Assembly: GCA_029907315.1 (NCBI GenBank)
Contig: JARYME010000001.1
Coordinates: 15,613 to 79,612, forward strand
Source: Armatimonadota bacterium
GTDB lineage: Bacteria; Armatimonadota; UBA5829
Length of the DNA stretch: 64,000 nt
Reading direction: 5' to 3'
Positions 37,700 through 64,000 of the stretch are shown here, piece by piece (the first letter of the stretch is position 1; every line of letters begins with the position of its first letter). Below the pieces are notes generated by a model. That model saw only the letters and a list, made by a program, of their open reading frames with translations. It was not told the DNA's origin and did not search any database. Both the position numbers and the translations under genes were made by a program.

Positions 37700-37751
37700 T
37701 TAGAGTTTTCGGTGAAACTTATAAATACGATACTGGCTTGGAAGCCGCCTC

Positions 37752-37819: not shown

Positions 37820-37826
37820 CTAATGC

Positions 37827-40563: not shown

Positions 40564-40618
40564 TCCGCAGGCATTGCACCGCTGGTCAGCAAGATATACA
40601 CGCCAATACTGGTGGCTG

Positions 40619-41362
40619 CTATTTTATACTCGCTTCGAGGCCTTCCGGGTCCAATATGACATTGACACTAGCGCGAAAGCGTACAGGATCTCGAACATAC
40701 GCAAGATAATCTTCAAGCCTTCTTCTCGCATTGACGCTGTTGTGTGCTAACACTATTCCGCCACTTGGTATCCGGTTATAACCAGCTTCCAGGATCTCCA
40801 AGTATATTCCCTTTCCCTTCTCGGGTGTTCCGTCGGCGTCGAGGTAAAGAAGGGATACCTCGTTGGGATAGGTGCGAAGAAAATCTACCGCGTCCGCTGC
40901 GACAACTCGCGCTTTACCTTCAGGGTCAATTTGTCTGATGTTTTGTTCCGCACGCGCCGCTTCAGCCGGCTTTATTTCTATACCCACGAGGTCATTCGCT
41001 TGATAGCAGGCTCCCGGACCCGCTGCAGCTCCTATGTTCAGCGCGAATGTAAAGCCGCAAAATATTCCGGCCGCCAGCACGGTGCGCGGCTGAGCAATAG
41101 CATTGATTGCCCACAATAGCCTTTGCACTCGTGGCGAGATTGCCGTCCAGGGGATGTCAAATGTTTGCTGTACCGCTTGGCGAAAGCGTAGGAATTGATC
41201 TGGATCGTAGTTTTTATGAGGTAGTATATTAGCATCCACCAAGACCGCTAGTGCTTCATCAACCACCCTGATTTCGTTCTCGATTGACTCCAGTTGAGCA
41301 AATGGCCGTCTGTAATCCATTCTATACTGCGCCCAGTCAGGCGCTCGATACTCAAAAACCAA
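40619..41362 (-). CDS. Class I SAM-dependent O-methyltransferase (O-MT family 3-like)
   Basis: A glycine-rich SAM motif region (VLAAGIFCGFTFALNIG) and LLYLDADG, which resembles the FIDADK motif of catechol-O-MT-like enzymes. Confidence 0.45.
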   Translation of the reverse strand: MVFEYRAPDWAQYRMDYRRPFAQLESIENEIRVVDEALAVLVDANILPHKNYDPDQFLRFRQAVQQTFDIPWTAISPRVQRLLWAINAIAQPRTVLAAGIFCGFTFALNIGAAAGPGACYQANDLVGIEIKPAEAARAEQNIRQIDPEGKARVVAADAVDFLRTYPNEVSLLYLDADGTPEKGKGIYLEILEAGYNRIPSGGIVLAHNSVNARRRLEDYLAYVRDPVRFRASVNVILDPEGLEASIK

Positions 41363-41389
41363 AGCAAAGCCTCCTGTAAGCTTGAGAAC

Positions 41390-45040: not shown

Positions 45041-45125
45041 TTATGAACCATAGCATTCGGCGAGTCAAGCTGAAGGACCCGTTGCTACTCAGGAATAATC
45101 CTAACCTTGAGAGGAGGCCGCGCAC

Positions 45126-47219: not shown

Positions 47220-47278
47220 GTGCGGTGACAGAGCTTAAGAGAGACCTGGATCGATCAAGGTGAACGAGGTGTTGGTTT

Positions 47279-48745: not shown

Positions 48746-48754
48746 CCTAAGGCT

Positions 48755-50608
48755 TTACTGGTTAATTATCTGAATATCGGTTTGACGTCTTACGCGAAGC
48801 ACAGGGAGCGTGTAGTCAGGCCCAAAAGGCTGTTCGACGCTCGAGATCCCTGTCACTGTGACAAAAGAGTTCCGAGGAGGCTTCATTAGGTTTCTGCAGT
48901 TGACCTTCAGACCGATCAGTCCTGTGCCGTCATCTCGGTTGGAGCCATCGTCCACATAGAAGTAATCGAAGGCTGAGGTCGACACCACGCGTCCGCACAC
49001 GGTTACCAAAAGCCCAACATTGTTAGCTCCCAGCCCGTTTGTTATGCCAGGCATATATTGGTTTGCCGAACCTCCGATCCACTTTTGGGCAAGCGCCAAT
49101 GGCTTTACCGGACTAGTGCTGCCGACGTTTACTATGGTGGGTCCTGAGATTACTCGTTCACCGCTAATCGTTTCGACCATACCCGTAACTTCCAGTCTGT
49201 CCCCTTCCCTCAAATTTGGGGGATTGCCGGAGAAAAGCAATGCAATCCCGCGTGCTCTATCGGGTTGTTCAACGTACACGCGCCCCGGAATCTCACCTGT
49301 GTTACTTGTGGCAACCAAATTACCAATGCGCACCCGCGTTCCATCTGGGATCTGGCTCAGCTCAGATAGAGCGATTGTACGGATGGGTGCGCTTGTCAGT
49401 GCTCGATATGCGTTAGCGATTCCCCAGCCTGTATAGTAATCCCAGCCAGCCGGCGGGATGTCTGTGCACGTGCTCTTGATCTGTTCTGCTACTTGGTTGT
49501 TTGTCCAATGGGGATAATAGCTCCATACCAATGCTGCAATACCTGAGACAAAAGGAGCTGCTGCGGATGTGCCGCTGGAGAAGTTGTAAGATCCGTCATT
49601 CCACGTTCCGAGAATGAAATTGCCCGGTGCCACCACGTCGAGGTAGCTGCCATAGTTGGAACCGCCTTCGCCCCAATCGTAGGCCGTACAGCGCTGGCCG
49701 TATTCGTTCGAGGCACCTACAGCAATGACCTCCTCATAGGCGGCAGGAAAGAAAGGTTCTTCTGAGTCGTCATTGCCGCTGGCGGCAACAAGCACGCAGC
49801 CTTTGGATGCAGCATATCTAATTGCATCGTGCTCGGCAGGCACGTCATCATATCCTCCAAAGCTCATGTTAATAATCTTCGCACCGTTGTCCGCAGCCCA
49901 TACAATGCCTGCTGCAGCATCCGCTTCTGTGCCGTAACCGTTCGCGTCGAGTACTTTTATGGGCATGATTTTCGATCCCCACGTGACTCCTGCTATGCCG
50001 AACACGTTATTGGTGATGGCGGCAGCCACGCCGGCCACAAAAGTCCCGTGGCCGTGGTCATCATATACGTCGGAGGGATCGGCTCCGGTAATAAGATTCC
50101 TACCAGGAACTATTTTTGCCCAGAGGTCTTCGTGATCTGTCATTACCCCGGTGTCGACTATTCCAATCACTAAATCGGGGCTGCCGGTCGTAAGGTCCCA
50201 AGCTCTCTCCGCATCAATACCTACGTTCGGGTTATCCGGGTCATATAGACCCCACTGAAGGTAGATGCCCATAAACTGATACCAATCGTCATTTGGTGTC
50301 TTACAAATTGAAACGATATGGTTCGGCCCTGCATATTCCACGCTCGGGTTTTGTTTGATTGCTTGGATGGCTTCAGGGAGCGAAGCGCTGCTTGGCAGCT
50401 TGAGAACGTGATATCTTATCTGATCAAGGGACCGAACGCACTTTGCGCCCAACGCACCGGCAACAGACATTACGCGAGCTCGGTGCCCGGGTTTATACTT
50501 TATAAGTATCTCGTCCGGCTTGTGCGCCGCCTTCGCCAAGCCGGCAAGCAGCCCAATGAGAGCGGCTGTGAGTAGGACGGTGCGACGTAGTGGGTAGTGA
50601 TTGGCCAT
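48755..50608 (-). CDS. S8-family serine peptidase (subtilase) with signal peptide and C-terminal extension
   Basis: The catalytic triad motifs are GIVDTGV (Asp), HGTFVAG (His) and GTSAAAPFVSG (Ser). Confidence 0.8.
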   Translation of the reverse strand: MANHYPLRRTVLLTAALIGLLAGLAKAAHKPDEILIKYKPGHRARVMSVAGALGAKCVRSLDQIRYHVLKLPSSASLPEAIQAIKQNPSVEYAGPNHIVSICKTPNDDWYQFMGIYLQWGLYDPDNPNVGIDAERAWDLTTGSPDLVIGIVDTGVMTDHEDLWAKIVPGRNLITGADPSDVYDDHGHGTFVAGVAAAITNNVFGIAGVTWGSKIMPIKVLDANGYGTEADAAAGIVWAADNGAKIINMSFGGYDDVPAEHDAIRYAASKGCVLVAASGNDDSEEPFFPAAYEEVIAVGASNEYGQRCTAYDWGEGGSNYGSYLDVVAPGNFILGTWNDGSYNFSSGTSAAAPFVSGIAALVWSYYPHWTNNQVAEQIKSTCTDIPPAGWDYYTGWGIANAYRALTSAPIRTIALSELSQIPDGTRVRIGNLVATSNTGEIPGRVYVEQPDRARGIALLFSGNPPNLREGDRLEVTGMVETISGERVISGPTIVNVGSTSPVKPLALAQKWIGGSANQYMPGITNGLGANNVGLLVTVCGRVVSTSAFDYFYVDDGSNRDDGTGLIGLKVNCRNLMKPPRNSFVTVTGISSVEQPFGPDYTLPVLRVRRQTDIQIINQ

Positions 50609-50705: not shown

Positions 50706-51479
50706 ATGGGTAACAACGAACTGCCTAGAGATCTCATTGAAGCTATGCGCAGCGCCAAGTGCGTCTTTGTATTCACGGGTGCTGGAGCAAGCAAAGAATC
50801 TGGACTACCAACATTCCGCGAAATCGATGGCGAGTGGACCAGGCACGACCCGATGACCTTTGCCACTTTTGAAGGGTTCATTTCCAATCCGGTGAAGGTT
50901 TGGAACCTATACCGCCTCAGACAACGCCAGATAGCGTCAGCGCAACCGAACCCAGCCCACACTACGATTGCTGAGATGGAGCAATACTACCCGGAGTTTC
51001 TGCTCTGCACGCAAAACGTCGACGACCTGCATGAACGGGCTGGCAGTCGCAAGATTGTCAAGCTGCACGGCGATGCTTGGCAAATGCGGTGTTTGGACTG
51101 CGGGAAAATCTTCGACACGCGAGACTTTGATCTTCCGGATGAATTTACTGAAGAGACCCTTCCTAAATGTCCGAAGTGTGGCGGTCTGTGTAGACCCAAT
51201 ATAGTCTGGTTTGGGGAATACGTTCCACACGAGGCAATGGCTGCCGCGCTGGATATGGTGTCCAGGTGCGATCTGATGCTCATTGTGGGGACGTCGGGAG
51301 AGGTCTCCGGCGGTTACGGTTTTGCCCAGCAAGCTAGAGCAAATGGGGCAACGGTGGTGGAGATTAATCCGTCGGAAGGTGTGTTGACTCGTTACGCTCA
51401 CTTTTGGGTTCCTGAGCCGGCCGGTTTGGCACTGCCGCGGATATGGAAATCCGTAACCGACAGATGCCGAGCGCAATAA
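50706..51479 (+). CDS. cobB: NAD-dependent protein deacylase, Sir2 family (CobB-like)
   Basis: GAGASKESGLPTFR Rossmann motif, a catalytic His (KLHGD), a Zn ribbon CLDCG ... CPKCGG and IVWFGE; 257 aa. Confidence 0.8.
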   Translation: MGNNELPRDLIEAMRSAKCVFVFTGAGASKESGLPTFREIDGEWTRHDPMTFATFEGFISNPVKVWNLYRLRQRQIASAQPNPAHTTIAEMEQYYPEFLLCTQNVDDLHERAGSRKIVKLHGDAWQMRCLDCGKIFDTRDFDLPDEFTEETLPKCPKCGGLCRPNIVWFGEYVPHEAMAAALDMVSRCDLMLIVGTSGEVSGGYGFAQQARANGATVVEINPSEGVLTRYAHFWVPEPAGLALPRIWKSVTDRCRAQ

Positions 51480-51582
51480 AATGGAACGTCAATTTACCTT
51501 GCTCCTATGGTGTGCTGCTACAGTTAGGCTCGAATTGATCAACAGGGGAAACGTTTATCGTAGCTAGCTGTAGTCACCTCGT

Positions 51583-51624
51583 TTGACATTGACATTCCTG
51601 GTTAGTGCTGGTACATTTTACATT
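51583..51624 (+). promoter_or_regulatory. Promoter candidate with tandemly duplicated -35 (TTGACATTGACA) and duplicated -10-like (TACATTtTACATT) upstream of nurA-like/herA/sbcDC operon
   Basis: TTGACA at 51583-88 and 51589-94; TACATT at 51612-17 and 51619-24. The second -35 and first -10 are 17 nt apart. Confidence 0.4.
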
Positions 51625-52651
51625 GGCTGACATGAGCAAGCTCCTGCGCAAATTGGCCTCTTCTATTGCACACCAGGCGGACCCGCAAATTCACGTTGTA
51701 ATTGGCAGCGAGTTCTCCGACGAAGAGTCGCCTAGTCTTGTGCCTGCCGTGCCCCAGACGGCATCAGCTGAAATTGTGGAACCTTCCGGTAAAATAGACC
51801 CGGTGCCCGTAGGTACGCCGAACACCAGCGGATTTTCATACTTTATGGACGGCATGGAGCGCCGTCGGTTGGTTATGTACATTTCGGGGATACCCGTTGT
51901 CTATGGTTATGCGGCGGCAGGGATTCGCTGGCGCGGTGCAGATAAGCGGATGTACGCGCACGGCGATCCAAGCGAACGAGAGGCATTGTTTTGTCCAAGG
52001 AGACTGCTCGAACAGCTCTTCTTCGATTTGGATATTGACGTCGTCGATATTGAGGACGCGGGCAGCGCACTGGAAGACCATCCAATGATTTTCTTGGAAG
52101 CTGCCAAAAAGAAGGTGTCCGACATTCGGTCCAAACTCGAGGCAGAGGTGACCTCTAGGTGGCTTGCAGAGTTTGACGGATCGAACGAATGGCTGTTGGT
52201 TGATGGATCTATCTCTGGCAACTACGACCAATACCCGGCGCCAAATATCGTTGGTGTTGTGAAGAGCCACCAAACACAATATTTCCCGATCGAGGATCAG
52301 CGGAAAATACAGGCTCTGCGCGTAGGTGAGAGGAGTGGCCTGTTCATACCTAAGGGCAGGAATCGACCCGACGTTTACAGTTGGTACCTGAGGCTCTGGC
52401 CGAATGAAGGCCAAGACTTACATTTCGGACTCGTCAGGGTGGAAGCGCCGAAGTGCGATCGAACCGTCAGAATGGTAGATGAGATATCTCGGTGGCTGCT
52501 CGCTGAGCGGGCACCGCTCAGTATGCCCGATTCGCGCTGGGATAGGATGCTCTATCCGATACGTGACTGCGAGCAGTTTCTCAGGTCGCGTGCACCGAGC
52601 AAGACGGTCCTTGACGCAATTCTTATGCGATTTGCGGCAGGGAGGGGATAG
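51605..52651 (+). CDS. Hypothetical protein, candidate NurA-like nuclease partner of HerA (inference)
   Basis: 348 aa, ending 4 nt before the HerA-like gene. It carries hhhDG-type motifs (YFMDGME about residue 80, LLVDGSISG about residue 200) and later E/D clusters (SEREALF, DLDIDVVDIED) that are spaced roughly like NurA catalytic D-E-D. The start is GTG 51605 or ATG 51632. Confidence 0.4.
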   Translation: MLVHFTLADMSKLLRKLASSIAHQADPQIHVVIGSEFSDEESPSLVPAVPQTASAEIVEPSGKIDPVPVGTPNTSGFSYFMDGMERRRLVMYISGIPVVYGYAAAGIRWRGADKRMYAHGDPSEREALFCPRRLLEQLFFDLDIDVVDIEDAGSALEDHPMIFLEAAKKKVSDIRSKLEAEVTSRWLAEFDGSNEWLLVDGSISGNYDQYPAPNIVGVVKSHQTQYFPIEDQRKIQALRVGERSGLFIPKGRNRPDVYSWYLRLWPNEGQDLHFGLVRVEAPKCDRTVRMVDEISRWLLAERAPLSMPDSRWDRMLYPIRDCEQFLRSRAPSKTVLDAILMRFAAGRG

Positions 52652-52654
52652 CCG

Positions 52655-54643
52655 ATGATCAATGAACCACACACATCTGCAAGCAACGAGTCGACTTTTT
52701 TCGCCAAGACGACTGAGATTACCGACCGACAGATCGGTCGAGTTATAGCAACCAAAGATAAACCGAATACCGCGTATGAGTTCTATTTCTGGACGAGCTG
52801 CGATGACGCCAGTGTCGGCATAGGGACGCTTGTTGTCGCTGCAAGTCCAAAGACTCGAGCGTACGGGGTTGTGGTTGAAGGCTTCAGCTTTACCGATCTC
52901 GAGTCACCGCTACATGAGTATATTGGCCTAAATGGCGATCCTCGTATGGAAGCTCAAACGTCGCGGCCGGAGGTCAGATGTTACAAGGCAGCAGTGTTGC
53001 GTGTAGAACCGGAGGAGCCCCTTCAGCCAGTGCCGGTTGCGCCAGTCTATCTGGCTGACGATGTTGGCGTAGCAAAAGCGCTGAGAATGGATTCGTTCCA
53101 ATATACGACAGGTATTCCGGTCGGTCTTTATCAGAACGGAGATGAGCTATCGCCGGTGTATATTGACAGCGAGTTCCTACTTGGTCCTGAAGCTGCTCAC
53201 TTGAACGTAACTGGCGTTTCTGGTTTGGCGACCAAAACAAGCGCGATCGAGTTCATCCTATTATCCATATTTGAGCATTTCAAGGAAGACATTGCTGTTG
53301 TGTGTTTCAATGTCAAGGGCTCCGACCTTCTCTTCTTGGATTATCCGGCTGAAGAGAACATGCTTGACGAGCGCGATAGAAAGATGCACAGCCTTCTAGG
53401 AGTTCCATGCGAGCCTTTTCGAAACGTCAAATACTTTGCGCCGTTCAAACCTGATCGTGTGAACTTGAATACGCTGCGAACGAATCCTGAGTTGGTTCAG
53501 TCCGTAACTCCTCTATCTTGGGGTCTGAACGAAGTACTTGAGTTTACCGAAGTCGTTCTCAACAGGGACGACATTGACGCAAAGGCAGATGCGCTTATCG
53601 AATTCATCAGACAGCGCGTGATTAACCAAACCACCGAAGTCAATGGTCAACAGATAACCGTGCGCAATTTCCAAGACCTGAACCGGTGGTTTGACCTGGT
53701 TATGCGTGACATGGAGGAAAACAACAAATCGGAATGGAAAACGCATCACTATGCGACCATACGAAAGGTCCACAACCGCCTGTCGAATCTGAGTACGAGG
53801 TATAAAGGCCTTATTAGCCCGGACGAATTCGTATCCGACCTTCCGTGGGGTCGGTTCGAGGATCGTACCGTATATGTCGTCGATGTCGCAAATTTAGAGC
53901 CACAGGCACAAGACCTAGTTTTTACAAGAATTGTTTCTGAACTTAGACATCACCTCGAGACAGGCAAGCTCGGCGTGAAACACGTGATTGTTGTGGTTGA
54001 CGAGTTGAACAAGTATGCTCCTGCAGACGGTCCCGACACGTATCTTCGACAGACGCTTTTAGATATTTCCGAGCGTGGTAGATATCTGGGATTGGTCTTG
54101 TTCTCAGCGCAGCAGTTTCGCAGCCAAGTTCACAAGCGTATTGTCGGAAATTCAGGTACGTGCATCTATGGGCGCATGGACATGGATGAGCTGGCAACTC
54201 CTGGTTACCAAGTGCTCACCTCCGCTACTAAAGAGAAACTGGCGACTCTTCCGAAAGGCCAGTTGATGATTCGGCACCCCCATTTCACGCAGCCTATATT
54301 CGTTAAGTTTCCGCGTCCCAACATTATGCGCGGTCCTGATGGAATCAGAAGGTACCCGCCGGCAGAAGATTTGCCATTGGATGAGGCTGTTTGGTTAAAT
54401 CTTTCCCGCTTGGATCCGTCGATAAGTCGGAACGAAGTAAGAGACATCGTGGCAGAGACGTCTGACCAGGACGAGATTATTCGCGCAATGAACCTCACGC
54501 TGCAGCGCGTTCCACAGGACCCTGTTGCCGCGTTCAGAAGCGCAATCCGCAAGAAGGCCGGCGTGCTGAGTCCGGAGGAAAAACCTTCTATAGCAATCAA
54601 GGATGCTGGAAGCGACGGGTCCGATCCATTTGAGACGATCTAG
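52655..54643 (+). CDS. herA: HerA-like FtsK/HerA-superfamily ATPase (N-terminal HAS-barrel-like domain + RecA-like ATPase)
   Basis: An N-terminal HAS-barrel-like segment (IGRVIATKDKPNTAYEFYFWTS ... GTLVVAAS ... AYGVVVEGFSF). A Walker-A-like NVTGVSGLATKTSAIEF. A Walker B HVIVVVDELNKYAP; 662 aa. Confidence 0.6.
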   Translation: MINEPHTSASNESTFFAKTTEITDRQIGRVIATKDKPNTAYEFYFWTSCDDASVGIGTLVVAASPKTRAYGVVVEGFSFTDLESPLHEYIGLNGDPRMEAQTSRPEVRCYKAAVLRVEPEEPLQPVPVAPVYLADDVGVAKALRMDSFQYTTGIPVGLYQNGDELSPVYIDSEFLLGPEAAHLNVTGVSGLATKTSAIEFILLSIFEHFKEDIAVVCFNVKGSDLLFLDYPAEENMLDERDRKMHSLLGVPCEPFRNVKYFAPFKPDRVNLNTLRTNPELVQSVTPLSWGLNEVLEFTEVVLNRDDIDAKADALIEFIRQRVINQTTEVNGQQITVRNFQDLNRWFDLVMRDMEENNKSEWKTHHYATIRKVHNRLSNLSTRYKGLISPDEFVSDLPWGRFEDRTVYVVDVANLEPQAQDLVFTRIVSELRHHLETGKLGVKHVIVVVDELNKYAPADGPDTYLRQTLLDISERGRYLGLVLFSAQQFRSQVHKRIVGNSGTCIYGRMDMDELATPGYQVLTSATKEKLATLPKGQLMIRHPHFTQPIFVKFPRPNIMRGPDGIRRYPPAEDLPLDEAVWLNLSRLDPSISRNEVRDIVAETSDQDEIIRAMNLTLQRVPQDPVAAFRSAIRKKAGVLSPEEKPSIAIKDAGSDGSDPFETI

Positions 54644-54678
54644 GCTTTGCTTGATTAAGTGCGAAAAGACGTCCGACA

Positions 54679-55818
54679 ATGCGAGTAGTACACATTTCCG
54701 ATCCACATCTAGGCTACCGGGCTTACAATCGCGTGACTCCGGCTGGCATAAACGTGCGGGAAGCTGACGTGTTCAATGCATTTCGCGCTGCGTTGAGACG
54801 AACCGCCGAGATCGCACCTGATCTCATCGTTATCGCGGGTGATCTCTTCCACGTTGTTCGTCCCAGCAATTTGACCATTCAACACACATTTAGAGAGTTT
54901 CTTTCCCTTAGGCAGAAGTCAAACGCTCCAATTGTCATCATCGGGGGCAACCACGATTCGCCTAGGTCGGTTGACACCGGGTGCATACTCGATTTGTACG
55001 CACACTTGCCCGGCGTGTATGTAGCGCATACAGAGTACGTTCAAATCCCTCTGAAGGACTTGGACACATCGGTGTTCTGTCTGTGCCATCGAGCTCTGCC
55101 GCAGCTGTCCTCATTGAAGATCGAGCCTGATCCGTCGAGTAAGTACAACGTACTCGTCGCGCATGGAACCGTTGAAGGAATCGTGCGCAATGCTTACGAC
55201 CTTGTCGAAATTAGCCGCTCCCAAGTTCTTTCGGATGGCTGGGACTACATTGCTTTCGGGCATTACCACGTGTTTGAGAAACTAGCTGACAACGCCTACT
55301 ATTCTGGTTCCTTGGAGTACACGAGCACTTCCATCTGGGGCGAGGCCTCGCAGCCGAAGGGTTTTGTTGAGTACGATCTTGACCAACGCAGCCTTTTGCA
55401 GTTCCACGAGATAGAGACTCGGGAAGTTATCGATCTGCGCCCAATTGACGCGTCCGGAATTACTGCCGCGGAACTCGACCGCGCTATCGAGCAGCGCATA
55501 ATGGCAATTAAGGGCGGCTGGAAAAACAAGATCATCCGGCTTGTGGTTCAAAACGTGCCGCGTTCGGTGCAGGCCGACTTGGACTACGCAGCGATTCGAC
55601 GGATTCGCTCGGAAGCTTTGCATTTTGAATTGCAGCTTAGACCACCACAGGTTGTTCGAAGAGATGACCACTTGTTGCGAGATGCCGGTCCTGCCAGACC
55701 ACTTGAGGCTGAGTGGGAGGAATTTGCTAAAACCTGTCAGATTGCACCTGGTATCGACCGAGAACACCTTGCAGCACTGGGACGGGAATACCTCTTGAAG
55801 CAAGCTGCGGCCGAGTGA
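54679..55818 (+). CDS. sbcD: Mre11/SbcD-family DNA double-strand-break repair nuclease
   Basis: Calcineurin-like phosphoesterase motifs: HISDPHLG (I), IAGDLFH (II), GNHD (III), and later H motifs (AHGTVEG, GHYH). Confidence 0.8.
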   Translation: MRVVHISDPHLGYRAYNRVTPAGINVREADVFNAFRAALRRTAEIAPDLIVIAGDLFHVVRPSNLTIQHTFREFLSLRQKSNAPIVIIGGNHDSPRSVDTGCILDLYAHLPGVYVAHTEYVQIPLKDLDTSVFCLCHRALPQLSSLKIEPDPSSKYNVLVAHGTVEGIVRNAYDLVEISRSQVLSDGWDYIAFGHYHVFEKLADNAYYSGSLEYTSTSIWGEASQPKGFVEYDLDQRSLLQFHEIETREVIDLRPIDASGITAAELDRAIEQRIMAIKGGWKNKIIRLVVQNVPRSVQADLDYAAIRRIRSEALHFELQLRPPQVVRRDDHLLRDAGPARPLEAEWEEFAKTCQIAPGIDREHLAALGREYLLKQAAAE

Positions 55819-55846
55819 AGGTATTGATTAGGAGTGCAGAAGCGCC

Positions 55847-58285
55847 GTGAAGCTGATAAGTCTTGAGCTCAAAAACTTTCGACAGTACAGAAGCGCGTCG
55901 ATCTCATTTCCCGACGGCGTTACAGGAATCATAGGTCCCAACGGTGCGGGCAAGACTACCATTCTAGAAGCTATTGCCTGGACGCTGTATGGCGCCCCTG
56001 CTGTTCGGGGCAAGAACGAGACGATCAGGTCAAATTCTTCTGAGCCCAACGCTCGGCCGAGCGCCTCTCTCACATTCGAGCTCGGCGGACAAATCTACAG
56101 CATAACCAGATCTCTCGACCCTTCAGGCAGGGTGGGGCAGGCTGTACTGGAGATTGATGGCAAGCCTGTTCGCTCAGGGATGTCGGAGGTAACAGAGGCA
56201 ATAACAAGCCTTCTGGGTATGGATTACCGAGCATTCTTTACCAGTTTTTTCACTGGCCAGAAGCAGCTGGAGTTCATGGCAGCGCTTGACGGGCGCGCGC
56301 GTGAGGCTGCGATAAGCCGAATGCTTGGCTACGACCGTCTTACCAAGGCGCGCGAGCAAGTAAATCAAGACAGGCTGGGACTCGAGCGCGAGATCCAAGG
56401 CTTGGAGAAGGGCCTGCCGGATCCTGAAGACCTGGCTCGACGTCTCAACGATGCTCAGGAGCGTCTCAATACCGCTTTTACGGCACTGCGTGAAGCCGAA
56501 ATTCGCCACCGCCAAGCAGCGGATACGCTGAGCAAATTGGTTCCTGTTAAGGACGAGTCTGACAAGAAAGCCAAGGCATACGAAAACCTCAGTAGACAAT
56601 TGGAGCTACACAAAGCCGAACTGCAGCGTGCCGAGGAGCGCTTGCTGCAGGTTCGTGCGGAGTTGGCTGATCTGGCATCCAGGCGCGCCGAGCTTGACTC
56701 GCTGCAGCTTGATCTCAAGCGATATGAAGAAGCAGGCGCGGAGTACAAGAGACTGAAAGCCCTCCAGGTACACGAGGCTGAGCGGCAGCAGCTTGCGGGA
56801 CAGATAAGGACACTGGAAGCAGAGGTGGAGCGGCTTGAGTCTAGGGTTGTAAAACTGCGTTCGGCGCGCAATGAGCAAGAAAAACTCGCTGCTGCCGTGT
56901 CTGAAACTCAAACCTTGCTTTCTTCAGCAGAAGCGGAGTTGCAGCGTCTGCGAGAGGAGCTTGTAGCGAAGAGACACTCATTGGAGGTGCAGATAAAACA
57001 GCTGACAAAGCAACGATCAGATGTCCAGGCAAAGCGCAACCAGATTGCGCAGGCGGGCCGCGAGGGTGCTTGTCCAACTTGTGAGAGGCCGCTGGGCGAA
57101 GAATTGGATGTTGTGCTTGCCCGGTTTGACTCACAGGTAAGCGATATTGACAGGACTCTGGGTGATCTCAATGCACAGCTTTCCGGTCTGTCGCGTTATG
57201 AAACGCTGATTGGCGATGTAGCTGCACAAAGAAACAAACTTGCCGATCAACTTGAGTCTCTGCGAAAAGAGAAATCGGATGCTGATGCGAGAGTCAAAGA
57301 GTACGAGACACTCCTCAAAGATATCGAGCAGAGAAAAGCAGAACTGACGAAGTGTCGAGAACGCCTAGATTTGCTTCCGAAGGGTTTCGACCAGTTCAGG
57401 TTTCAAGAGCTTCAAAGGATAGGAGAAGAACTCCGACCCGTGCGGGAACGAGCGGTTGCGCTAAAGGCGGCTTTGGACAGGGAACCGACGCTGCGCACTG
57501 AAGAAGCGGATCTAGACTCGCGCGTACGGGATTTAAGAAGTCATGTCACCTCACTGGGCCAGGCTATCGAAGATCTACAGTTTTCGAATGAGCAGCACGA
57601 GTCAATATCGCAGGAGTTTCAGAAGGCCAGCCAAGCTGTAGCAGATGCGGCAGTGGAATTGGAGCGGTGCAAGGGGGATGTGAGGAGCGCAAGACTCCTT
57701 TTAGACGCTGTCGAACGAGAGCAGCGCGATTATGAAGAAAGGATGCGTGAGCTTCAATCGAAGCGCTTCCAACACGCACACCTGCGCGCCTTGGCTGAGG
57801 CTTTCGACAAGCTCAGAGCTGATCTGAATGACCGTATCAGGCCGGAATTGGAGTATACTGCGAGCCAGCTGCTTTCGGTGATGACTGATGGGCGGTACAA
57901 CGTGCTGCGCATCGACGATGACTACAAGCCGGTTATTGTTGACGACGGAGAGGAAAAACCGGTTATATCCGGCGGTGAGGACGATATAGTTAACCTTGCC
58001 TTGAGACTTGCGATATCCCAGATGATTGCAGACCGAGCAGGACAGTCATTCTCGCTGCTGATATTAGATGAAGTCTTCGGCTCACTCGATGAGACACGGC
58101 GCCAAAATGTGGTGAGTTTACTTCAGAATCTCAAGAACAGATTTGAGCAAATAATATTGATCACGCATATCGAATCTATACATGATGCCGTGGATAACTG
58201 CCTTTGGGTAGAGTTTGATGAAAACAGTAAAACTAGCCGGATCGCCGAGCGTCGTGCCGAAGACTTCGTGGAAATGGCGGTTTAG
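55847..58285 (+). CDS. sbcC: Rad50/SbcC-family SMC-like ATPase with central CxxC zinc hook
   Basis: N-terminal Walker A (GPNGAGKTT). A long coiled coil with CPTC at mid-length. C-terminal signature SGGE and Walker B (LLILDEVFGSLD); 812 aa. GTG start. Confidence 0.8.
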   Translation: MKLISLELKNFRQYRSASISFPDGVTGIIGPNGAGKTTILEAIAWTLYGAPAVRGKNETIRSNSSEPNARPSASLTFELGGQIYSITRSLDPSGRVGQAVLEIDGKPVRSGMSEVTEAITSLLGMDYRAFFTSFFTGQKQLEFMAALDGRAREAAISRMLGYDRLTKAREQVNQDRLGLEREIQGLEKGLPDPEDLARRLNDAQERLNTAFTALREAEIRHRQAADTLSKLVPVKDESDKKAKAYENLSRQLELHKAELQRAEERLLQVRAELADLASRRAELDSLQLDLKRYEEAGAEYKRLKALQVHEAERQQLAGQIRTLEAEVERLESRVVKLRSARNEQEKLAAAVSETQTLLSSAEAELQRLREELVAKRHSLEVQIKQLTKQRSDVQAKRNQIAQAGREGACPTCERPLGEELDVVLARFDSQVSDIDRTLGDLNAQLSGLSRYETLIGDVAAQRNKLADQLESLRKEKSDADARVKEYETLLKDIEQRKAELTKCRERLDLLPKGFDQFRFQELQRIGEELRPVRERAVALKAALDREPTLRTEEADLDSRVRDLRSHVTSLGQAIEDLQFSNEQHESISQEFQKASQAVADAAVELERCKGDVRSARLLLDAVEREQRDYEERMRELQSKRFQHAHLRALAEAFDKLRADLNDRIRPELEYTASQLLSVMTDGRYNVLRIDDDYKPVIVDDGEEKPVISGGEDDIVNLALRLAISQMIADRAGQSFSLLILDEVFGSLDETRRQNVVSLLQNLKNRFEQIILITHIESIHDAVDNCLWVEFDENSKTSRIAERRAEDFVEMAV

Positions 58286-58536
58286 TTTCCTGTCCCGTTA
58301 CTTCTTTTTCTGCTCTCGCTCTTCGCGCAAGCGCTGCTTATAACGTTTCTCAGCCCTCTTTCTGCGCTGCCGTAGTTCTTTTGCGCGTATTCTCAGCTTG
58401 CTTCACCTCCCATCGTGTCTGTTTCAAACTGGATTATATTGTCGACGTGCGTCAGTGTCAAGATTTGGGGGTAGACCCGCCGCGCCTGCGTGGAAGCTTA
58501 TTTATCTCCGCGCCATGAATCAGGCGGTCGAGTTGC

Positions 58537-58566
58537 TTGAATACATGTAACTGCTCCTCGTATAAT
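58537..58566 (+). promoter_or_regulatory. Sigma70-like promoter TTGAAT - 18 nt - TATAAT immediately upstream of sulfotransferase-like gene (near-leaderless)
   Basis: TTGAAT at 58537-42 and TATAAT at 58561-66. An ATG follows at 58576, only 9 nt after the -10. Confidence 0.4.
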
Positions 58567-58575
58567 GCTCTTGTT

Positions 58576-59289
58576 ATGCTGATTACGATCATTGGTAGGG
58601 GACACGGAGGCACCCGCGCGATCTCCAAGACGCTGGTTGAAAGCGGCGTATACATGGGTGAGCCCTTGAACGCTTCGTACGACTTGATTCCGGCTGAGGA
58701 TATGTACGAAGCGTGCCGCGTCATGGCCAAGTATGTCCATTATAAGGGCGGTCTCGAATGGGACTTCTCACGCGTGCTCTCAGGTTCCATAGACCCTGAG
58801 TTCAAGCGTCTGGTTGAATCTTACCTTAGTAAGGTGCTCGCAAGCGATGCTCCCAACAAGGGTTGGAAGCTTCCAGAGACCACGCTCGTGTATCCCTGGA
58901 TCGCTAGAATGTTTCCGGAGGCGTACTACATCCACTGGGTCCGCGACCCGCGTGACTCCATACTCGGCAGGCACCTGACTGACGACCTAGCTGATTTCGG
59001 CATACCATGTGACCGGTCGAACGATGAGCGCCTTCGTAGAGCTATAAGCTGGAAATATCAAAGAGAGATTGTGAAATCGACTCCTGCACCTAAGCATTGG
59101 ACACTTGTACGTTTTGAGGACTTTGTGCTGAGGCAGGAAGAGACTCTGGCACGTCTAGAGAAGTTCCTAGGAATACGCTTAGCGCGGATCCCTGTGAACC
59201 CGGAAGCCGTCGGGCGGTGGCGAAACGACGAGGGGGTTCACGATTTTGACTTCCTTCACGACGATATGCGGGAGCTGGGCTATTTGTAG
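58576..59289 (+). CDS. Sulfotransferase-family protein (PAPS-dependent, P-loop-like 5'-PSB and RDPRD 3'-PB motifs)
   Basis: LITIIGRGHGGTRAI resembles the 5'-phosphosulfate-binding loop (PKSGTTW-type), and WVRDPRDSILG resembles the 3'-phosphate-binding motif. The alternative ATG at 58537 falls inside the promoter-like element. Confidence 0.45.
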   Translation: MLITIIGRGHGGTRAISKTLVESGVYMGEPLNASYDLIPAEDMYEACRVMAKYVHYKGGLEWDFSRVLSGSIDPEFKRLVESYLSKVLASDAPNKGWKLPETTLVYPWIARMFPEAYYIHWVRDPRDSILGRHLTDDLADFGIPCDRSNDERLRRAISWKYQREIVKSTPAPKHWTLVRFEDFVLRQEETLARLEKFLGIRLARIPVNPEAVGRWRNDEGVHDFDFLHDDMRELGYL

Positions 59290-59298
59290 TAGACCTGG

Positions 59299-60120
59299 TT
59301 ACTGAGACTGCGGTTGGGCCAGCAGCAGAACTGATTCCGGTATTGCTCCCTCGTTGCTAAGCAGCTTCGATAGCTCGGGGCTTTTCAGCAGCTCAAAAAT
59401 ATCGCGGGTTTTCCCGTCTAAGAGGACGGTTCTGTAGACCAGGCGCAGCCCGTGACTATAATCCACATAGTTTGCGTGGTGTACCGTACTCAGGGGCTGT
59501 ATGGGCTCACCGGTCGGTATGTGCCACCCGTATATAGCAACTCTGTCGGGCTTACAAGCTAGGGCCCTCGTTATGACTATGTCCTTCTTTGCCCCGGCTA
59601 TTAGGGCAGAGCGTTCCGTGTTCAATAACTGCTGTTGAATCAAACCATTGTGTCGGAGAAAGGTTTCTACAGCCTGGCGCGGTTCTCCGAGCGGGATCGG
59701 CTCTACTTTCACATAAGCTTGTTTAAAGATTTCGTCAACGATTCGCGTTGTTGGAAGCGAACACCGGAGAAGACGGCATACCTCCAGCGCGGCTTGAAGC
59801 GTTAACGGCGTTCGAACATAATCCTCGTCGCAGCCTATCGCAAGGTAATCAGGCGAAACCCATATGATCAGTTTATGCTCCACGCAGGAGCTGTCTTTAC
59901 CATCGAGCCGCACAGGAACGAGTCTGCGCAGGAAATCTGGAATATTGCCACTGGAGATTTGGGCCAGGAAATACTTTTCTCGATCGGCAAGAGTCAGTTT
60001 CGTAGCGTTCCTCATTACAGCAGAGCCTCCAAGCGCGCAACAAGGCCGCCTTGGCAGGTCCAACTGGCAGCTTCCTGCATCGGAGAGAATAGCTGTTAGC
60101 AACACAGTGATGATGATCAA
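59299..60120 (-). CDS. Hypothetical protein (273-aa ORF; N-terminal hydrophobic segment), function unknown
   Basis: Coding-like ORF between the sulfotransferase and cysNC. No motif recognised, and the start is uncertain. Confidence 0.35.
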   Translation of the reverse strand: MIIITVLLTAILSDAGSCQLDLPRRPCCALGGSAVMRNATKLTLADREKYFLAQISSGNIPDFLRRLVPVRLDGKDSSCVEHKLIIWVSPDYLAIGCDEDYVRTPLTLQAALEVCRLLRCSLPTTRIVDEIFKQAYVKVEPIPLGEPRQAVETFLRHNGLIQQQLLNTERSALIAGAKKDIVITRALACKPDRVAIYGWHIPTGEPIQPLSTVHHANYVDYSHGLRLVYRTVLLDGKTRDIFELLKSPELSKLLSNEGAIPESVLLLAQPQSQ

Positions 60121-60166
60121 TTCCTACTGTTGGTATGTGGGTAATAGCTTTTGCGGCTGCTGTCCA

Positions 60167-62059
60167 CTATTCCAATATCCGCTTCTCTCGCAACAAGCCG
60201 ATTATTGCTTCAACACACGCATCCACCGAAAGCTGCGTAGTGTCTAACTTTAGGTCTGGTTGGTCGGGCTCTTCGTAAGGTGACGAGACGCCCGTGAACT
60301 CAGGTATCAGACCTTGCCGTGCCTTGGCGTAAAGTCCTTTAGGGTCTCTTTCCTCGCAGGTTTCAATGGGTGCATGCACAAAGATTTCCAAGAACCGGTC
60401 GCCTCCAATAATGGAACGAGCGTTCTCTCGGTCCTTGCGGAACGGTGAGATAAGCGACACCAACACCACGAGGCCTGCCTCATTCATCAGGCGCGCAACT
60501 TCCGCAACGCGCCGAATGTTCTCCGAACGATCACTCGGTGAGAAACCCAAGTCTTTGTTCAAACCTTGCCGCACCTTGTCTCCGTCCAAAACAAAACAGG
60601 CTCGGCCGTCTGCCAAGAGCCTTTTCTCGACAGCATAAGCAATGGTGGACTTACCCGATCCACTCAACCCTGTCATCCAAATTGTCACCGGCTTTTGGCC
60701 GAGAACCAGGCTCCTGTCCTCAACTGTGATTTGCTCCTGATGAAGTGCAACCCGCTGGGCTGCAGTCGAACCAGTGTAAGGGTGGGAGCGGTCGATTATC
60801 ATTCCGCAACCGACCGTGAAATTCGTGATTGGATCTATGACAATGAACGCCCCAGTGGAACGGTTCCGCGCATACTCGTCGCACATTATGGGTCTGAACA
60901 AATGCATGCATACTCGCCCCATCTCGTTAAGGGCAAGCGCCTTGGCTTCTTGTCGGTGAAGAGTGTCTGGATCGATTCTGTACATAACGTCGGTGAACCG
61001 CCCGCGCACAACCGATGTGGTGTGTTTCACAAGGTAATACCTGTCCAACCGCATCGGTTCTTCGTGCAACCATATCAGCATGGCCTCTATGTCTCTTGCA
61101 ATCCAGGGAACATTGGCTGGATGAGCGATCATGTCGCCGCGGCTGATGTCCAGGTCGTCCGCGACACACAGTGTAACCGATTGAGGGGCAAAGGCGTAAT
61201 CGACTTCCTCAAAACCTTTCTGTATACGGGTGATCGTGGTCAGACGACGTGACGGAAGGACGACTACTTCTTCCCCTAGGCGAACCACGCCGGAAGCAAT
61301 CGTGCCTGCATATCCTCTGAAGTCACTGCTGGGTCTCAGAACATACTGCACAGGAAACCTGAAGTCTATCAGGTTTTGATCGCTGGCTATGTGTACCGTC
61401 TCCAGATAACTCAGAAGAGGCGGTCCCTGATACCATGGCATGTTTTCACTGCGGTGAACGACGTTGTCGCCTTTGAGGGCGCTTATGGGAATGAATTCCA
61501 AGTCTGCTATTCGTAGTTTGGTGCAGAACTGCCCGAATTCGTGACGTATAGCTTCGAATGCGTTCTGTGACCAGCCGACAAGATCCATCTTGTTCACCGC
61601 GACGACGATTCGCGGAATGCCCAGAAGCGAAGCTATAAACGCGTGGCGCCTGGACTGGGTTGTGACGCCGTTCCTAGCATCGACAAGTATCAAAGCGAGG
61701 TCTGCTGTTGACGCTCCAGTGGCCATGTTTCGCGTGTACTGTTCGTGGCCCGGAGTGTCAGCGATTATGAAACGCCGACGCGGCGTAGCAAAATGGCGGT
61801 ATGCAACGTCGATAGTGATGCCCTGTTCCCGCTCAGCCTTTAGCCCATCAGTGAGTAGCGCGAAGTCAATGTATTCCCTTCCGGCTTTGCGAGAGTCGCG
61901 GTCGAGCGACGCAAGGTGGTCCTCATATATGGCTTTTGCATCGTGCAGTAGTCGACCGATCAAGGTAGACTTGCCGTCGTCTACGCTGCCTGCAGTTACA
62001 AATCGCAGCAGTTCGGATTCGGAGACCTGTTCAATCAACTGCTCAATGCTTACAGCCAT
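60167..62059 (-). CDS. cysNC: Bifunctional sulfate adenylyltransferase subunit 1 / adenylylsulfate kinase (CysN-CysC fusion)
   Basis: An N-terminal GTPase (AGSVDDGKSTLIGRLL, DTPGH, NKMD) and a C-terminal APS kinase P-loop (WMTGLSGSGKSTIA); 630 aa. Confidence 0.85.
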   Translation of the reverse strand: MAVSIEQLIEQVSESELLRFVTAGSVDDGKSTLIGRLLHDAKAIYEDHLASLDRDSRKAGREYIDFALLTDGLKAEREQGITIDVAYRHFATPRRRFIIADTPGHEQYTRNMATGASTADLALILVDARNGVTTQSRRHAFIASLLGIPRIVVAVNKMDLVGWSQNAFEAIRHEFGQFCTKLRIADLEFIPISALKGDNVVHRSENMPWYQGPPLLSYLETVHIASDQNLIDFRFPVQYVLRPSSDFRGYAGTIASGVVRLGEEVVVLPSRRLTTITRIQKGFEEVDYAFAPQSVTLCVADDLDISRGDMIAHPANVPWIARDIEAMLIWLHEEPMRLDRYYLVKHTTSVVRGRFTDVMYRIDPDTLHRQEAKALALNEMGRVCMHLFRPIMCDEYARNRSTGAFIVIDPITNFTVGCGMIIDRSHPYTGSTAAQRVALHQEQITVEDRSLVLGQKPVTIWMTGLSGSGKSTIAYAVEKRLLADGRACFVLDGDKVRQGLNKDLGFSPSDRSENIRRVAEVARLMNEAGLVVLVSLISPFRKDRENARSIIGGDRFLEIFVHAPIETCEERDPKGLYAKARQGLIPEFTGVSSPYEEPDQPDLKLDTTQLSVDACVEAIIGLLREKRILE

Positions 62060-62114
62060 AAGGCACCTACTGACTCTTGTTCATTCAGTTGTGGGCACGT
62101 GTCGGTGCGCAGTA

Positions 62115-63020
62115 CTAGAAATACCCTTCACGCTTCTTCTGCTCCATAGAGCTGTCCTGATCGTGATCGATTAAGCGGGTAACTCTCTCAGAATGCTTTA
62201 CCGTTATCATCTCCTGAACTATCTCAGCAACGCTTCGAGCCGACGATACAACTGCTCCCGTGCAAGGGTAGCATCCTAGGGTCCTGAACCTACACATCAC
62301 CGTCTGTGGCTCTTCGCCTGGCTGCAATCGCATGCCTTCATAAACGGGTATGAGTCTGCCATCGCGAACTACCATTGGTCTTTCCTTTGCGAAGTACATG
62401 GGGACTACTGGAATCTGCTCGCGGTATATGTACAACCACACATCCAGCTCAGTCCAGTTCGAAAGAGGAAAAACCCGAATGCATTCGCCCTTCTTAATTC
62501 GGCCGTTGTACAAGTTCCATAGCTCCGGCCTCTGGTTTTTGGGGTCCCACTGTCCGTAAGAATCGCGGAATGAATACACGCGCTCCTTAGCCCTGGATTT
62601 CTCCTCATCGCGGCGCGCTCCGCCGAGAGCTGCGTCATAACCGCCTTCCTGCAAAGCATTAAGAAGTGCTTGTGTTTTCAGGATGGCGCAGCACTTGACT
62701 GTACCCATGTCCCACGGATTGACGCCCTGGGCAATGGCTTCATCGTGGCGATATATCCTCAGGTCAGCTCCGATCTCGCGGCAGAACCTATCGCGAAACT
62801 CATACATTTCGGGGAATTTCATCCCGGTGTCTACGTGGAGGAGGGGAAACGGTATTTTTCCGGGATAAAACGCCTTTTGCGCGAGCCTCACCATCACGGA
62901 AGAGTCTTTCCCGACTGAGTAGAGCATAACCGGGCGTTCAAACTCCGCTGCGACCTCTCGAATTATGTGGATGCTTTCAGCTTCGAGGGCTTCCAGGTGA
63001 GAAAGATGAAGCTTTTCCAT
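62115..63020 (-). CDS. cysD: Sulfate adenylyltransferase subunit 2
   Basis: PAPS-reductase-like ATP-PPase with a [12 protein letters not shown]-loop; 301 aa, directly upstream of cysNC. Confidence 0.85.
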
Positions 63021-63029: not shown

Positions 63030-64000
63030 CTACTTCACTCCCGCCGGTTCTTCGAAGACGAACTTGCTCAGCTTTGCCGAGCGTGGAACTTCAACGGGGT
63101 ACTTGCCGTCCAGGCAAGCGCAGCACAATTTGTCTCTTCTTACGCCTATGGCGCGAATCAAACCCGGCAAACTTAGGTAACCTAGACTGTCGGCTCCGAT
63201 GTATTGTCTGATTTCTTCAACCGAGAGTTTCGCGGCAATAAGCTCGTTCTGATTCGCTGTGTCGATGCCGTAGAAGCAGGGGTGCTTGTAGGGTGGGGAC
63301 GCTATGCGAACGTGAACCTCAACTGCGCCCGCTTCTCGGATCATTTTGATTGTCGGACCAATGGTGGTTCCCCTGACAATCGAGTCCTCCACCATTACAA
63401 CCTTTCTTCCCGCCAGACTTTCTTTCAAGGGAGTAAGCTTCATTCGAACGCCCAATTCGCGCATTCGCTGATCCGGCTGAATGAAAGTTCGGTGGATATA
63501 TCGGTTCTTAATGACGCCTTCAGCATAAGGAATGCGGGAGGCTTCAGCAAATCCTATGGCGTGAGGTGTTCCCGTGTCGGGGATAGGAAATACAATGTGT
63601 GCCCCAGGAGCTGGATGTTCCTTTGCCAGCTCATGGCCCATCCGTCGCCTCACGTCGTGCATGGTTCTGCCATACATTTGGCTGTCCGGTCGCGCGAAGT
63701 ACACGTATTCAAAAACACATAGGGCGCTACCCTCGCGCGGTATTGCTTGTACCTCGCGCATCCCGTGTTCGTCTATCACGATCATCTCGCCAGGCTCAAC
63801 TTCTCTTACAAACTGCGCACCAATGGTGTTTAGAGCGCATGTCTCAGATGCAAGAACGTACTCAGTTCCGTTGAGCCTGCCAATGCAAAGCGGACGTATG
63901 CCGAACGGGTCGCGGATTCCGATTAGCTTGTCACAGGTTAAGATAACAACGGCATACGCTCCGCGAATCTTTTTCATTGTTTCTACGACTGCATCCTCGA
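63030..64000 (-). CDS. purF: Amidophosphoribosyltransferase PurF, C-terminal ~320 aa (5' end outside window)
   Basis: A PRTase-domain region (KLIGIRDPFGIRPLCIGR, VVMVEDSIVRGTT) with C-terminal Cys residues. The frame is open to the window edge upstream of the listed M. Confidence 0.75.
   Translation of the reverse strand, partial: EDAVVETMKKIRGAYAVVILTCDKLIGIRDPFGIRPLCIGRLNGTEYVLASETCALNTIGAQFVREVEPGEMIVIDEHGMREVQAIPREGSALCVFEYVYFARPDSQMYGRTMHDVRRRMGHELAKEHPAPGAHIVFPIPDTGTPHAIGFAEASRIPYAEGVIKNRYIHRTFIQPDQRMRELGVRMKLTPLKESLAGRKVVMVEDSIVRGTTIGPTIKMIREAGAVEVHVRIASPPYKHPCFYGIDTANQNELIAAKLSVEEIRQYIGADSLGYLSLPGLIRAIGVRRDKLCCACLDGKYPVEVPRSAKLSKFVFEEPAGVK

Follow-up and report, generated by a model that had tools for sequence, protein, structure and literature searches.

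A sulfotransferase gene of a conserved orthogroup linked to PAPS-synthesis genes in an Armatimonadota genome: a candidate sulfation cassette

The stretch of DNA analysed here, which we call the window, is 64 kb long and comes from a metagenome-assembled genome (MAG) of the Armatimonadota; two of its proteins have NCBI versions, QHI38_00310 and a 'sulfotransferase'. Near its end lies a sulfotransferase gene together with genes for synthesis of 3'-phosphoadenosine 5'-phosphosulfate (PAPS), a group that an original prediction, made from the letters alone, had taken for a candidate sulfation module. All four open reading frames (ORFs) named in that prediction are present where it had placed them. 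Scans of the window for tRNAs and Rfam families gave no matches. The features of the locus are as follows (ST, sulfotransferase; U273, the 273-aa protein).

58537..58566, plus strand: sigma-70-type promoter, TTGAAT-18-TATAAT (consensus scan, 10/12 matches)
58576..59289, plus strand: ST gene, 237 aa, predicted cytoplasmic (PF13469 match, orthologue starts)
59299..60120, minus strand: U273 gene, encoding a 273-aa protein of a large uncharacterised family (without a Pfam or NCBIfam match)
60167..62059, minus strand: cysN-cysC fusion (cysNC), 630 aa (NF004035; GTP_EFTU, GTP-eEF1A_C and APS_kinase domains)
62115..63020, minus strand: cysD, 301 aa, small subunit of ATP sulfurylase (NF003587, TIGR02039)
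63030..64000, minus strand: 3' part of purF, which leaves the window end (TIGR01134, E 1e-103)

CysD matches NF003587 (472 bits), NF009214 (470 bits), TIGR02039 (466 bits) and Pfam PAPS_reduct, while the CysN-CysC fusion matches NF004035 (946 bits), NF003478 (612 bits) and TIGR00455 (244 bits) and retains all its nucleotide-binding motifs in translation (G1 GSVDDGKST, G3 DTPGH, G4 NKMD and the kinase P-loop GLSGSGKST). These family models and intact motifs bear out the original assignment of both genes, which on this evidence specify an intact PAPS pathway, i.e., ATP sulfurylase with its GTPase subunit plus adenosine 5'-phosphosulfate (APS) kinase. The cysD gene starts 9 nt past the purF stop, a junction identical in arrangement in three related loci (L001, L088 and L089). 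As the neighbour upstream of cysD in the same orientation, purF is context and lies outside the sulfation function. The U273 gene is the last in the purF-cysD-cysNC transcription unit, and its stop is 9 bp from that of the convergent ST gene.

The sulfotransferase had been predicted as a 250-aa protein. A profile hidden Markov model (HMM) search aligned residues 90-215 of this ORF with Sulfotransfer_3 (PF13469) at an E value of 8e-13 and 49.5 bits, above the cutoff of 27, and the family assignment stands, with further support from the motifs and the predicted fold. The ORF itself (58537-59289, plus strand) is real, but its TTG start was placed 39 nt too early. Homologue searches returned 3767 relatives, the best 120 of which are 69-100% identical, nearly all 236-238 aa long, and share the N-terminus M-L/M-I/V-T-I/V-I-G-R-G-H; more than 100 orthologue clusters have this length and the N-terminus MLITIIGRGHGGT. 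Given this common length and N-terminus, the true start is the ATG at 58576, which yields a protein of 237 aa. The TTG at 58537 opens the -35 hexamer instead and is no start codon. Orthologues from at least seven phyla share 61-86% identity.

Both sequence motifs pointed out originally are found in the protein, GRGHGGT at 58594-58614 (GRGHGGTR, 58594-58617) and RDPRD at 58942-58956 (RDPRDS, 58942-58959). In the orthologue alignment I-G-R-G-H-[GS]-G-T-R is invariant, and W-x-R-D-P-R-D-S-I is invariant or nearly so in 27 orthologues. The only sequence-level match in the PDB is the tyrosylprotein sulfotransferase (TPST) TPST1 (E 0.012), in the alignment with which W-V-R-D-P-R-D-S-I stands opposite V-R-D-G-R-A-S-V, and G-W-K opposite C-N-K. 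A structure model, which had been proposed as a check, has a sulfotransferase fold with a strand (residues 2-7), a loop and a helix (residues 10-22) around the first motif; it resembles solved sulfotransferases, with TPSTs at the top of the structural match list. These alignments and the model identify the two motifs as the 5'-phosphosulfate-binding (PSB) loop and the 3'-phosphate-binding motif, respectively. The PSB loop carries a His at the position of Arg in TPST and of Lys in cytosolic SULTs. As the protein starts directly with the first beta strand, it would have no signal peptide and would be cytoplasmic. Family, motifs and predicted fold point to a PAPS-dependent sulfotransferase, whose activity and PAPS dependence are inferred.

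The near-leaderless promoter TTGAAT-18-TATAAT that had been noted before the ST gene is present at 58537-58566 by consensus scan. Its -10 hexamer, TATAAT, ends 9 nt before the ATG, with no Shine-Dalgarno sequence in between. Six promoter-like sites were found in the region versus 3.4 +/- 2.0 expected, a count that is not significant on its own. The TATAAT ending 9 nt before the ATG is, however, kept in L001, L088 and L008 despite diverged flanking sequence, with a TTGAGT-like -35 hexamer in L001 and L088 and TTTGTC in L008. As this promoter geometry recurs in all three, it is plausible that the ST transcript is leaderless, or nearly so, in the lineage of the window. Distant orthologues have ordinary ribosome-binding sites.

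A scan of a genome collection for the ST family found a relative in at least 558 species-level genomes, of which the best 80 loci were kept; with loci from other look-ups and the window itself, these made up 86 ST loci. Neighbours were counted either by tblastn within 8 kb (n = 86 loci) or by ORF clustering within 7 kb (n = 85 loci). A tblastn search placed cysD, cysN or both no more than 8 kb from the ST gene in 30 of the 86 loci, as compared with a chance expectation that we estimate at about 0.4% by assuming that the locus is present once in a genome of a few Mb. Linkage between this sulfotransferase and PAPS synthesis is recurrent, and it extends over several phyla, so that the pairing of the two, read originally as a sulfation arrangement, is not peculiar to the window. 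The orientations and flanks of the linked loci vary between taxa (arrowheads give the direction of transcription).

Many Armatimonadota: convergent, ST> <cysNC <cysD
Chthonomonadales: co-directional behind a divergent AraC regulator, AraC< cysD> cysNC> ST>
Lentisphaerota/Victivallales: cysD> cysNC> near ST
Clostridia: divergent, <cysN <cysD <cysC (or a cysC-cysQ fusion) ST>, with a TauE-family permease in some

In at least 12 Armatimonadota genomes the internal order of ST, cysNC and cysD is constant, and at least four different flanks are found. Among them, the pur operon flanks the unit in L001, L088, L089 and the window; in L002 the neighbour is a Mu-like prophage with an SNF2 helicase; and in L010, L011 and L018 a heparinase II/III-like gene occurs together with an oxidoreductase of the Gfo/Idh/MocA family (GFO). 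In L001 (8204-15075), L088 (3535-10802) and L089 (8151-15113), purF and purM directly flank the cysD-cysNC(-U273)/ST unit, so that it resembles a cassette inserted into the operon for purine biosynthesis. Missing from the window is the queC-to-purM stretch (queC, exbB, exbD, tonB, purN, purM) that separates rad50 from ST in L001 and L089. In these two loci, the closest relatives with context, the ST gene directly adjoins cysNC. The description of the window ST gene as convergent with, and directly beside, the PAPS genes was correct as to orientation only, as the U273 gene lies between it and cysNC.

Several further observations concern individual linked loci. In Clostridia (L059, 3118-4494; also L057, L058, L069 and L082) CysC is fused to a domain of the inositol-monophosphatase family, a CysQ-like phosphatase of adenosine 3',5'-bisphosphate (PAP), and the fusion gene lies between cysD and ST. 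As CysQ removes PAP, the by-product of sulfotransfer, this polypeptide would combine PAPS synthesis and PAP removal in one protein encoded beside the sulfotransferase. A nucleotidyltransferase/HepT-like toxin-antitoxin pair is located between ST and cysNC in L019 (10755-11439), and such a pair is also near ST in L020. CysD is split into several reading-frame fragments in L006 (13428-14682) and L009 (17384-18510), which may reflect frameshift errors of assembly rather than pseudogenes.

There is evidence of a second genomic context of the ST gene. When its neighbours were clustered without prior labels and then named by Pfam, three families stood out.

Gfo/Idh/MocA oxidoreductase (Pfam GFO_IDH_MocA): 45/85 ST loci (ORF clustering, within 7 kb)
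Protein of about 470 aa with 'Sulfatase' and SGSH_C domains, usually immediately upstream on the ST strand: 44/86 ST loci (tblastn, within 8 kb)
Xylose-isomerase-like TIM barrel (Pfam AP_endonuc_2): 34/86 ST loci (tblastn, within 8 kb)

The typical order of this sugar module is GFO> TIM-barrel> GFO> sulfatase-like> ST> GFO, as in L003 (6621-11724) and about 40 other loci (e.g., L015, L023, L044, L047 and L055), and the taxa that carry it are Chloroflexota, Planctomycetota, Verrucomicrobiota, Lentisphaerota, Spirochaetota and some Armatimonadota and Clostridia. Nine of the 86 loci hold both the module and cys genes; L055, L060 and L071 have the order TauE< cysN< cysD< cysC< ST> NPP-like< TIM-barrel> sulfatase-like> GFO> GFO>, which L068 shares up to a contig end at cysD. 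Accessory neighbours are an AraC regulator (14 loci) and an L-rhamnose mutarotase gene, rhaM, directly after ST (3 loci), together with major facilitator superfamily transporters, a GH38 mannosidase and FGGY kinases. In two Oscillospiraceae MAGs (L027, 10835-~13000; L063, ~10800-13947) two radical-SAM genes (309 and 425 aa) follow ST, with no cys or sulfatase-like genes.

In the sulfatase-like protein T-T-P-[GA]-Y replaces the formylglycine motif C/S-x-P-x-R in 26 of 29 motif-bearing sequences, which places it among the Thr-type enzymes of the alkaline-phosphatase superfamily, apart from classical sulfatases, and its N-terminus runs straight into the catalytic domain, which indicates that it has no signal peptide. 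Median inter-phylum identities of the components are 62% (ST), 60% (sulfatase-like protein), 58% (oxidoreductase) and 55% (TIM-barrel protein), suggesting a conserved, laterally spread module. As the ST orthologue elsewhere sits in conserved, AraC-regulated clusters of cytoplasmic sugar-converting enzymes, the acceptor in the window lineage is, by analogy, most likely a soluble carbohydrate-like metabolite. No sugar-module partners were detected in the window by tblastn, and the cluster holds no genes for biosynthesis or uptake of an acceptor. Literature searches found no characterised member of the sugar/ST module. A speculative extension, which we regard as more doubtful than probable, is that the sulfotransferase is the signature enzyme of an undescribed, laterally spread module for transient O-sulfation of a sugar or cyclitol, made up of the Thr-type enzyme, the TIM-barrel protein and two to three Gfo/Idh/MocA oxidoreductases, often AraC regulated and sometimes with cysD, cysN, cysC(-cysQ) and the TauE permease. 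PAPS would be spent to O-sulfate the sugar or cyclitol, e.g., to provide a leaving group as in CurM/olefin-synthase chemistry, and the Thr-type enzyme would then remove or displace the sulfate ester; if this were so, the window would hold the PAPS/ST half of the pathway.

The role of U273, which the original prediction had proposed as a substrate-related partner, appears to be a different one. No match was found in Pfam, NCBIfam or a PDB sequence/profile search (none even at E <= 1). A homologue search returned 4837 relatives in many phyla, and an exhaustive profile search gave 3746 clusters at 50% identity, a family for which there is no Pfam model. In its alignment, a hydrophobic N-terminus, which is a probable export signal, precedes a conserved segment, I-P-x-R-P-x-x-A-x-x-G; the conserved domain of the window protein begins at LPRRPxxAxGG. 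Within this part of the protein R25 and G32 are invariant; hence, the 238-aa NCBI version, which begins at M36, cuts off conserved sequence, and translation more likely starts near 60120, while the exact start codon is uncertain, as an AGGA is only 1 nt before the TTG. H157, K179-D180, Y-G-W-H 197-200, H214 and D-Y-S-H-G 220-224 are also invariant, and such conservation of His, Asp, Lys, Tyr and Trp suggests a site for binding or catalysis. Of 73 long family members, nine are fused to PG_binding_1 and others to SH3_3, SH3_4, CHAP or a carbohydrate-binding module (CBM), and most of their N-terminal extensions are proline rich. U273 is therefore probably exported and associated with the cell envelope.

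U273 lies beside ST in only four Armatimonadota genomes. In the window and L088 it is located between cysNC and ST, its start in L088 being 4 bp past the cysNC stop, and in L005 and L009 it forms the C-terminal domain of secreted proteins of 574 and 623 aa at the same position. As the L088, L005 and L009 copies are only 47-52% identical, a random recent insertion was rejected. The closest relatives, L001 and L089, do not have the gene, nor does L002, and homologues in Myxococcota, Thermoanaerobaculia and L086, L087 and L091 are in unrelated contexts without ST or cys genes. No homologue of either ST or U273 turned up on plasmids. This distribution and the cell-wall-binding fusions argue against a substrate-related partner. 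U273 is co-oriented and probably co-transcribed with cysD-cysNC, but it is a lineage-specific passenger of one Armatimonadota sublineage, and the sulfation unit neither generally includes nor requires it; in that lineage it may still be linked to sulfation, e.g., through a sulfated envelope polymer.

The predicted fold of U273 gave a moderate match to C-type-lectin/formylglycine-generating enzyme (FGE)-like folds, which was not significant by Foldseek versus the PDB. A role as an FGE, i.e., a sulfatase-maturing enzyme, was rejected: U273 has no Cys pair (no Cys is invariant in the alignment) and no PF03781 match and is probably exported, and the sulfatase-like neighbours of ST are themselves without the motif that FGE modifies. 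The same features set it apart from SUMF2, the C-terminal domains of EgtB/OvoA and the variable proteins of diversity-generating retroelements, as do the absence of a PDB sequence match and the peptidoglycan-binding fusions in its own family. In a Thermoanaerobaculia MAG (L092, 3744-5578) a 320-aa gene with a weak Pfam FGE-sulfatase match directly precedes a U273 homologue, the stop of one and the start of the other sharing position 4706; hhalign of the U273 family against this neighbour gave a probability of 0.05, i.e., no detectable sequence relationship.

It is also possible, although we consider it somewhat unlikely, that cysD-cysNC provides assimilatory sulfate activation, with cysH, sulfite reductase and a sulfate transporter encoded elsewhere, and that the sulfotransferase is an opportunistic neighbour drawing on the same PAPS pool. 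The cysDNC genes are the standard assimilatory set in many bacteria, and in the window cysD follows purF in a housekeeping pur operon. Genes converting sulfate to sulfite have been reported for Fimbriimonas, another member of the Armatimonadota (PMC4072686). There is a second CysN(C) copy near ST in L013, hinting at separate pools in some genomes. However, Pfam scans of approximately 54 ORFs of the 64-kb window found no cysH, sulfite reductase or sulfate transporter gene, in agreement with the original statement on cysH, and an unfiltered search of all six-frame window ORFs with a CysD-profile HMM matched CysD alone, i.e., no second PAPS_reduct-type gene. The same profile, run against six-frame ORFs of all retrieved loci, detected nothing CysH-like up to 10 kb from any ST gene, including the 30 loci that are cys linked, and when 105 other ORFs lying within 4 kb of ST-linked cysDN were tallied by Pfam, no PAPS-reductase or sulfite-reductase family was recurrent. 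A cysH gene immediately outside the window, which would have undercut the original prediction, is disfavoured, as synteny with L001, L088 and L089 predicts the rest of purF and then purL beyond the window end. Linkage of ST and cysDN across phyla and orientations, with cysQ in Clostridia, is hard to square with a casual neighbour. This alternative is compatible with a sulfation cassette, and cysDNC may feed assimilation as well; the original reading of the locus as a sulfation module is supported.

Two other alternatives accept sulfation but differ in the acceptor. One, which is unlikely, is that the enzyme sulfates the precursor of an envelope or secreted polymer (a glycan, exopolysaccharide or glycolipid) which is bound or processed outside the cell by exported proteins encoded with cysDNC in some Armatimonadota, i.e., U273, a GH99-like protein, a fusion of a serine hydrolase to U273 and the heparinase II/III-like protein. 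There is no glycosyltransferase, flippase or polymerase gene beside ST in the window; U273 is missing from the three relatives named above and its family occurs without ST or cys linkage outside the Armatimonadota (L085, L086, L087, L091 and L092); and the cross-phylum partners of ST are cytoplasmic small-molecule enzymes. The other, which we hold to be very unlikely, is that ST is a protein or peptide tyrosine sulfotransferase similar to RaxST of Xanthomonas, a looser parallel to the window unit in which PAPS is supplied by RaxP/RaxQ (PMC4646787, PMC6637879). TPSTs do top the structural match list, yet structural similarity alone does not establish acceptor specificity. The raxST gene is clustered with the gene for its peptide substrate, raxX, and an exporter and not with raxPQ, whereas the window ST gene has no peptide or exporter genes and, across the 86 loci, there is no recurrent gene for a small precursor peptide, a peptidase-containing ABC exporter or a ribosomally synthesized and post-translationally modified peptide beside ST; its recurrent neighbours are sugar-converting enzymes. 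In addition, the Arg of the PSB loop of TPST is replaced by His.

Overall, it is on balance probable that the window carries a cassette of PAPS supply and sulfotransferase that acts on a cytoplasmic, probably carbohydrate-like, acceptor. That it works as one functional unit is supported by the recurring linkage and by the lack of assimilatory genes nearby. CysD and the GTPase domain of CysNC would adenylylate sulfate to APS, the C-terminal APS-kinase domain would phosphorylate APS to PAPS, and the sulfotransferase, expressed from the opposite strand by a leaderless-type promoter of its own, would pass the sulfo group of PAPS on to a hydroxyl (or amine) on an acceptor that the window does not encode. 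A reverse reaction, in which ST would harvest sulfate esters to make PAPS, was rejected for energetic reasons and in view of the coupling of GTP hydrolysis by CysDN to forward catalysis. Several points weigh against the cassette as we describe it. A cysH gene may lie elsewhere in the genome, outside the 64-kb window, and the position of cysD, 9 nt after purF in a housekeeping purine operon, fits a constitutive PAPS supply but could equally serve assimilation. Neither cys nor sugar-module context was found at 21 of the 86 ST loci, mostly on short contigs, and the sugar partners are known only from other genomes, so that the acceptor is deduced by analogy with other phyla. The His variant in the PSB loop may mean that catalytic details differ, and literature searches found no characterised member of, or biochemical data for, the ST orthogroup.

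The cassette is a sulfation unit of a known general kind. In Sinorhizobium, NodP and NodQ are paralogues of CysD and CysN-CysC dedicated to PAPS supply for the carbohydrate sulfotransferase NodH in Nod-factor sulfation, and NodQ resembles the window protein in being a CysN-CysC fusion; the likeness is one of gene arrangement. The nod genes are, however, located in a symbiosis region with genes for the acceptor, a lipo-chitooligosaccharide, whereas the window cluster is without acceptor-biosynthesis genes. The NodPQ-NodH-type comparison drawn originally holds for the conserved adjacency of ST and PAPS genes and fails for an acceptor pathway at the locus. Bacteroides thetaiotaomicron encodes PAPS-synthesis proteins (BT_0411-BT_0415) beside a cholesterol sulfotransferase (BT_0416), an arrangement that is conserved in related species and was read as a dedicated sulfation cluster (PMC9417993). 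The window likewise has a gene for a predicted PAPS-dependent sulfotransferase beside PAPS-synthesis genes, but it belongs to another phylum, its cysN and cysC are fused, it lacks a transporter gene, and its sulfotransferase falls into a tightly conserved 237-aa orthogroup of its own. CysD-CysNC with the Stf sulfotransferases (Stf0, Stf1 and Stf9) of Mycobacterium tuberculosis is another looser parallel; the stf genes are not known to be adjacent to cysDNC there, and the window protein is much smaller than Stf1 and Stf9 and nearer to TPST. The sulfotransferase domains of CurM and olefin synthase (PDB 4gox) are parts of polyketide synthases and act on carrier-protein-bound intermediates, while the window protein is free-standing without polyketide synthase context.

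Upstream of the sulfotransferase gene, at 50706-58285 on the plus strand, lie a Sir2-family gene and then an operon encoding a 348-aa protein without a Pfam match, a 662-aa HerA-like ATPase (weak DUF87 match), an Mre11/SbcD-like phosphoesterase and an 812-aa Rad50/SbcC-like ATPase. As judged from the encoded proteins, it resembles the archaeal-type NurA-HerA-Mre11-Rad50 arrangement, and the HerA-like, Mre11/SbcD-like and Rad50/SbcC-like genes are syntenic in L001 and L089. A putative microgene, convergent with rad50, is present at 58298-58461 on the minus strand. It has a perfect TTGACA-17-TATAAT promoter (58461-58433), a Shine-Dalgarno sequence, GGGAGGTG (58411-58404), an invariant CTG at 58396 and a frame that is open to a TAA at 58298 and contains no ATG, GTG or TTG start; its product would be an Arg/Lys-rich peptide of 32 aa, (M)RIRAKELRQRRKRAEKRYKQRLREEREQKKK. 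The peptide is 97% and 87% identical in L089 and L001, respectively, versus 82% and 79% for the DNA, and the promoter hexamers, most of the Shine-Dalgarno sequence (AGGTGA) and the CTG are invariant in the window and both relatives. This basic microprotein was rejected as a substrate of Tyr sulfation, as its gene stays with rad50, 5 kb from ST, in L001 and L089 and its single Tyr is in a basic context. Other window content, at 41-8733, 27906-38148 and 38620-50608, comprises a cluster for the futalosine route to menaquinone (UbiD, a UbiX-like flavoprotein, UbiA, two MqnC/E-type radical-SAM enzymes, VitK2_biosynth and a PNP_UDP_1 phosphorylase-family protein), a complete chemotaxis operon (CheB, two CheX, two CheY-like receivers, CheD, CheR, MCP, CheW and CheA) and large proteins that appear, from their domains, to be extracellular (a Big_1/invasin-like protein, a 1216-aa NPCBM-domain protein, a glucuronyl/acetyl-xylan esterase-like protein and an S8 protease).

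In summary, our analysis amends the annotation of this locus with an ST start at the ATG at 58576, a start of the 273-aa protein upstream of the NCBI start and a cysD-cysNC/ST cassette in the pur operon, and indicates that the 273-aa gene should not be counted as sulfation machinery. The unit is of a familiar type, while its sulfotransferase is uncharacterised and unusually conserved and is found in two recurrent, sometimes joined, genomic contexts, the cys genes and the sugar module. As few bacterial sulfotransferases have a known acceptor, this orthogroup, with members in at least 558 species-level genomes, is a tractable target for discovery of a new sulfated metabolite or pathway.

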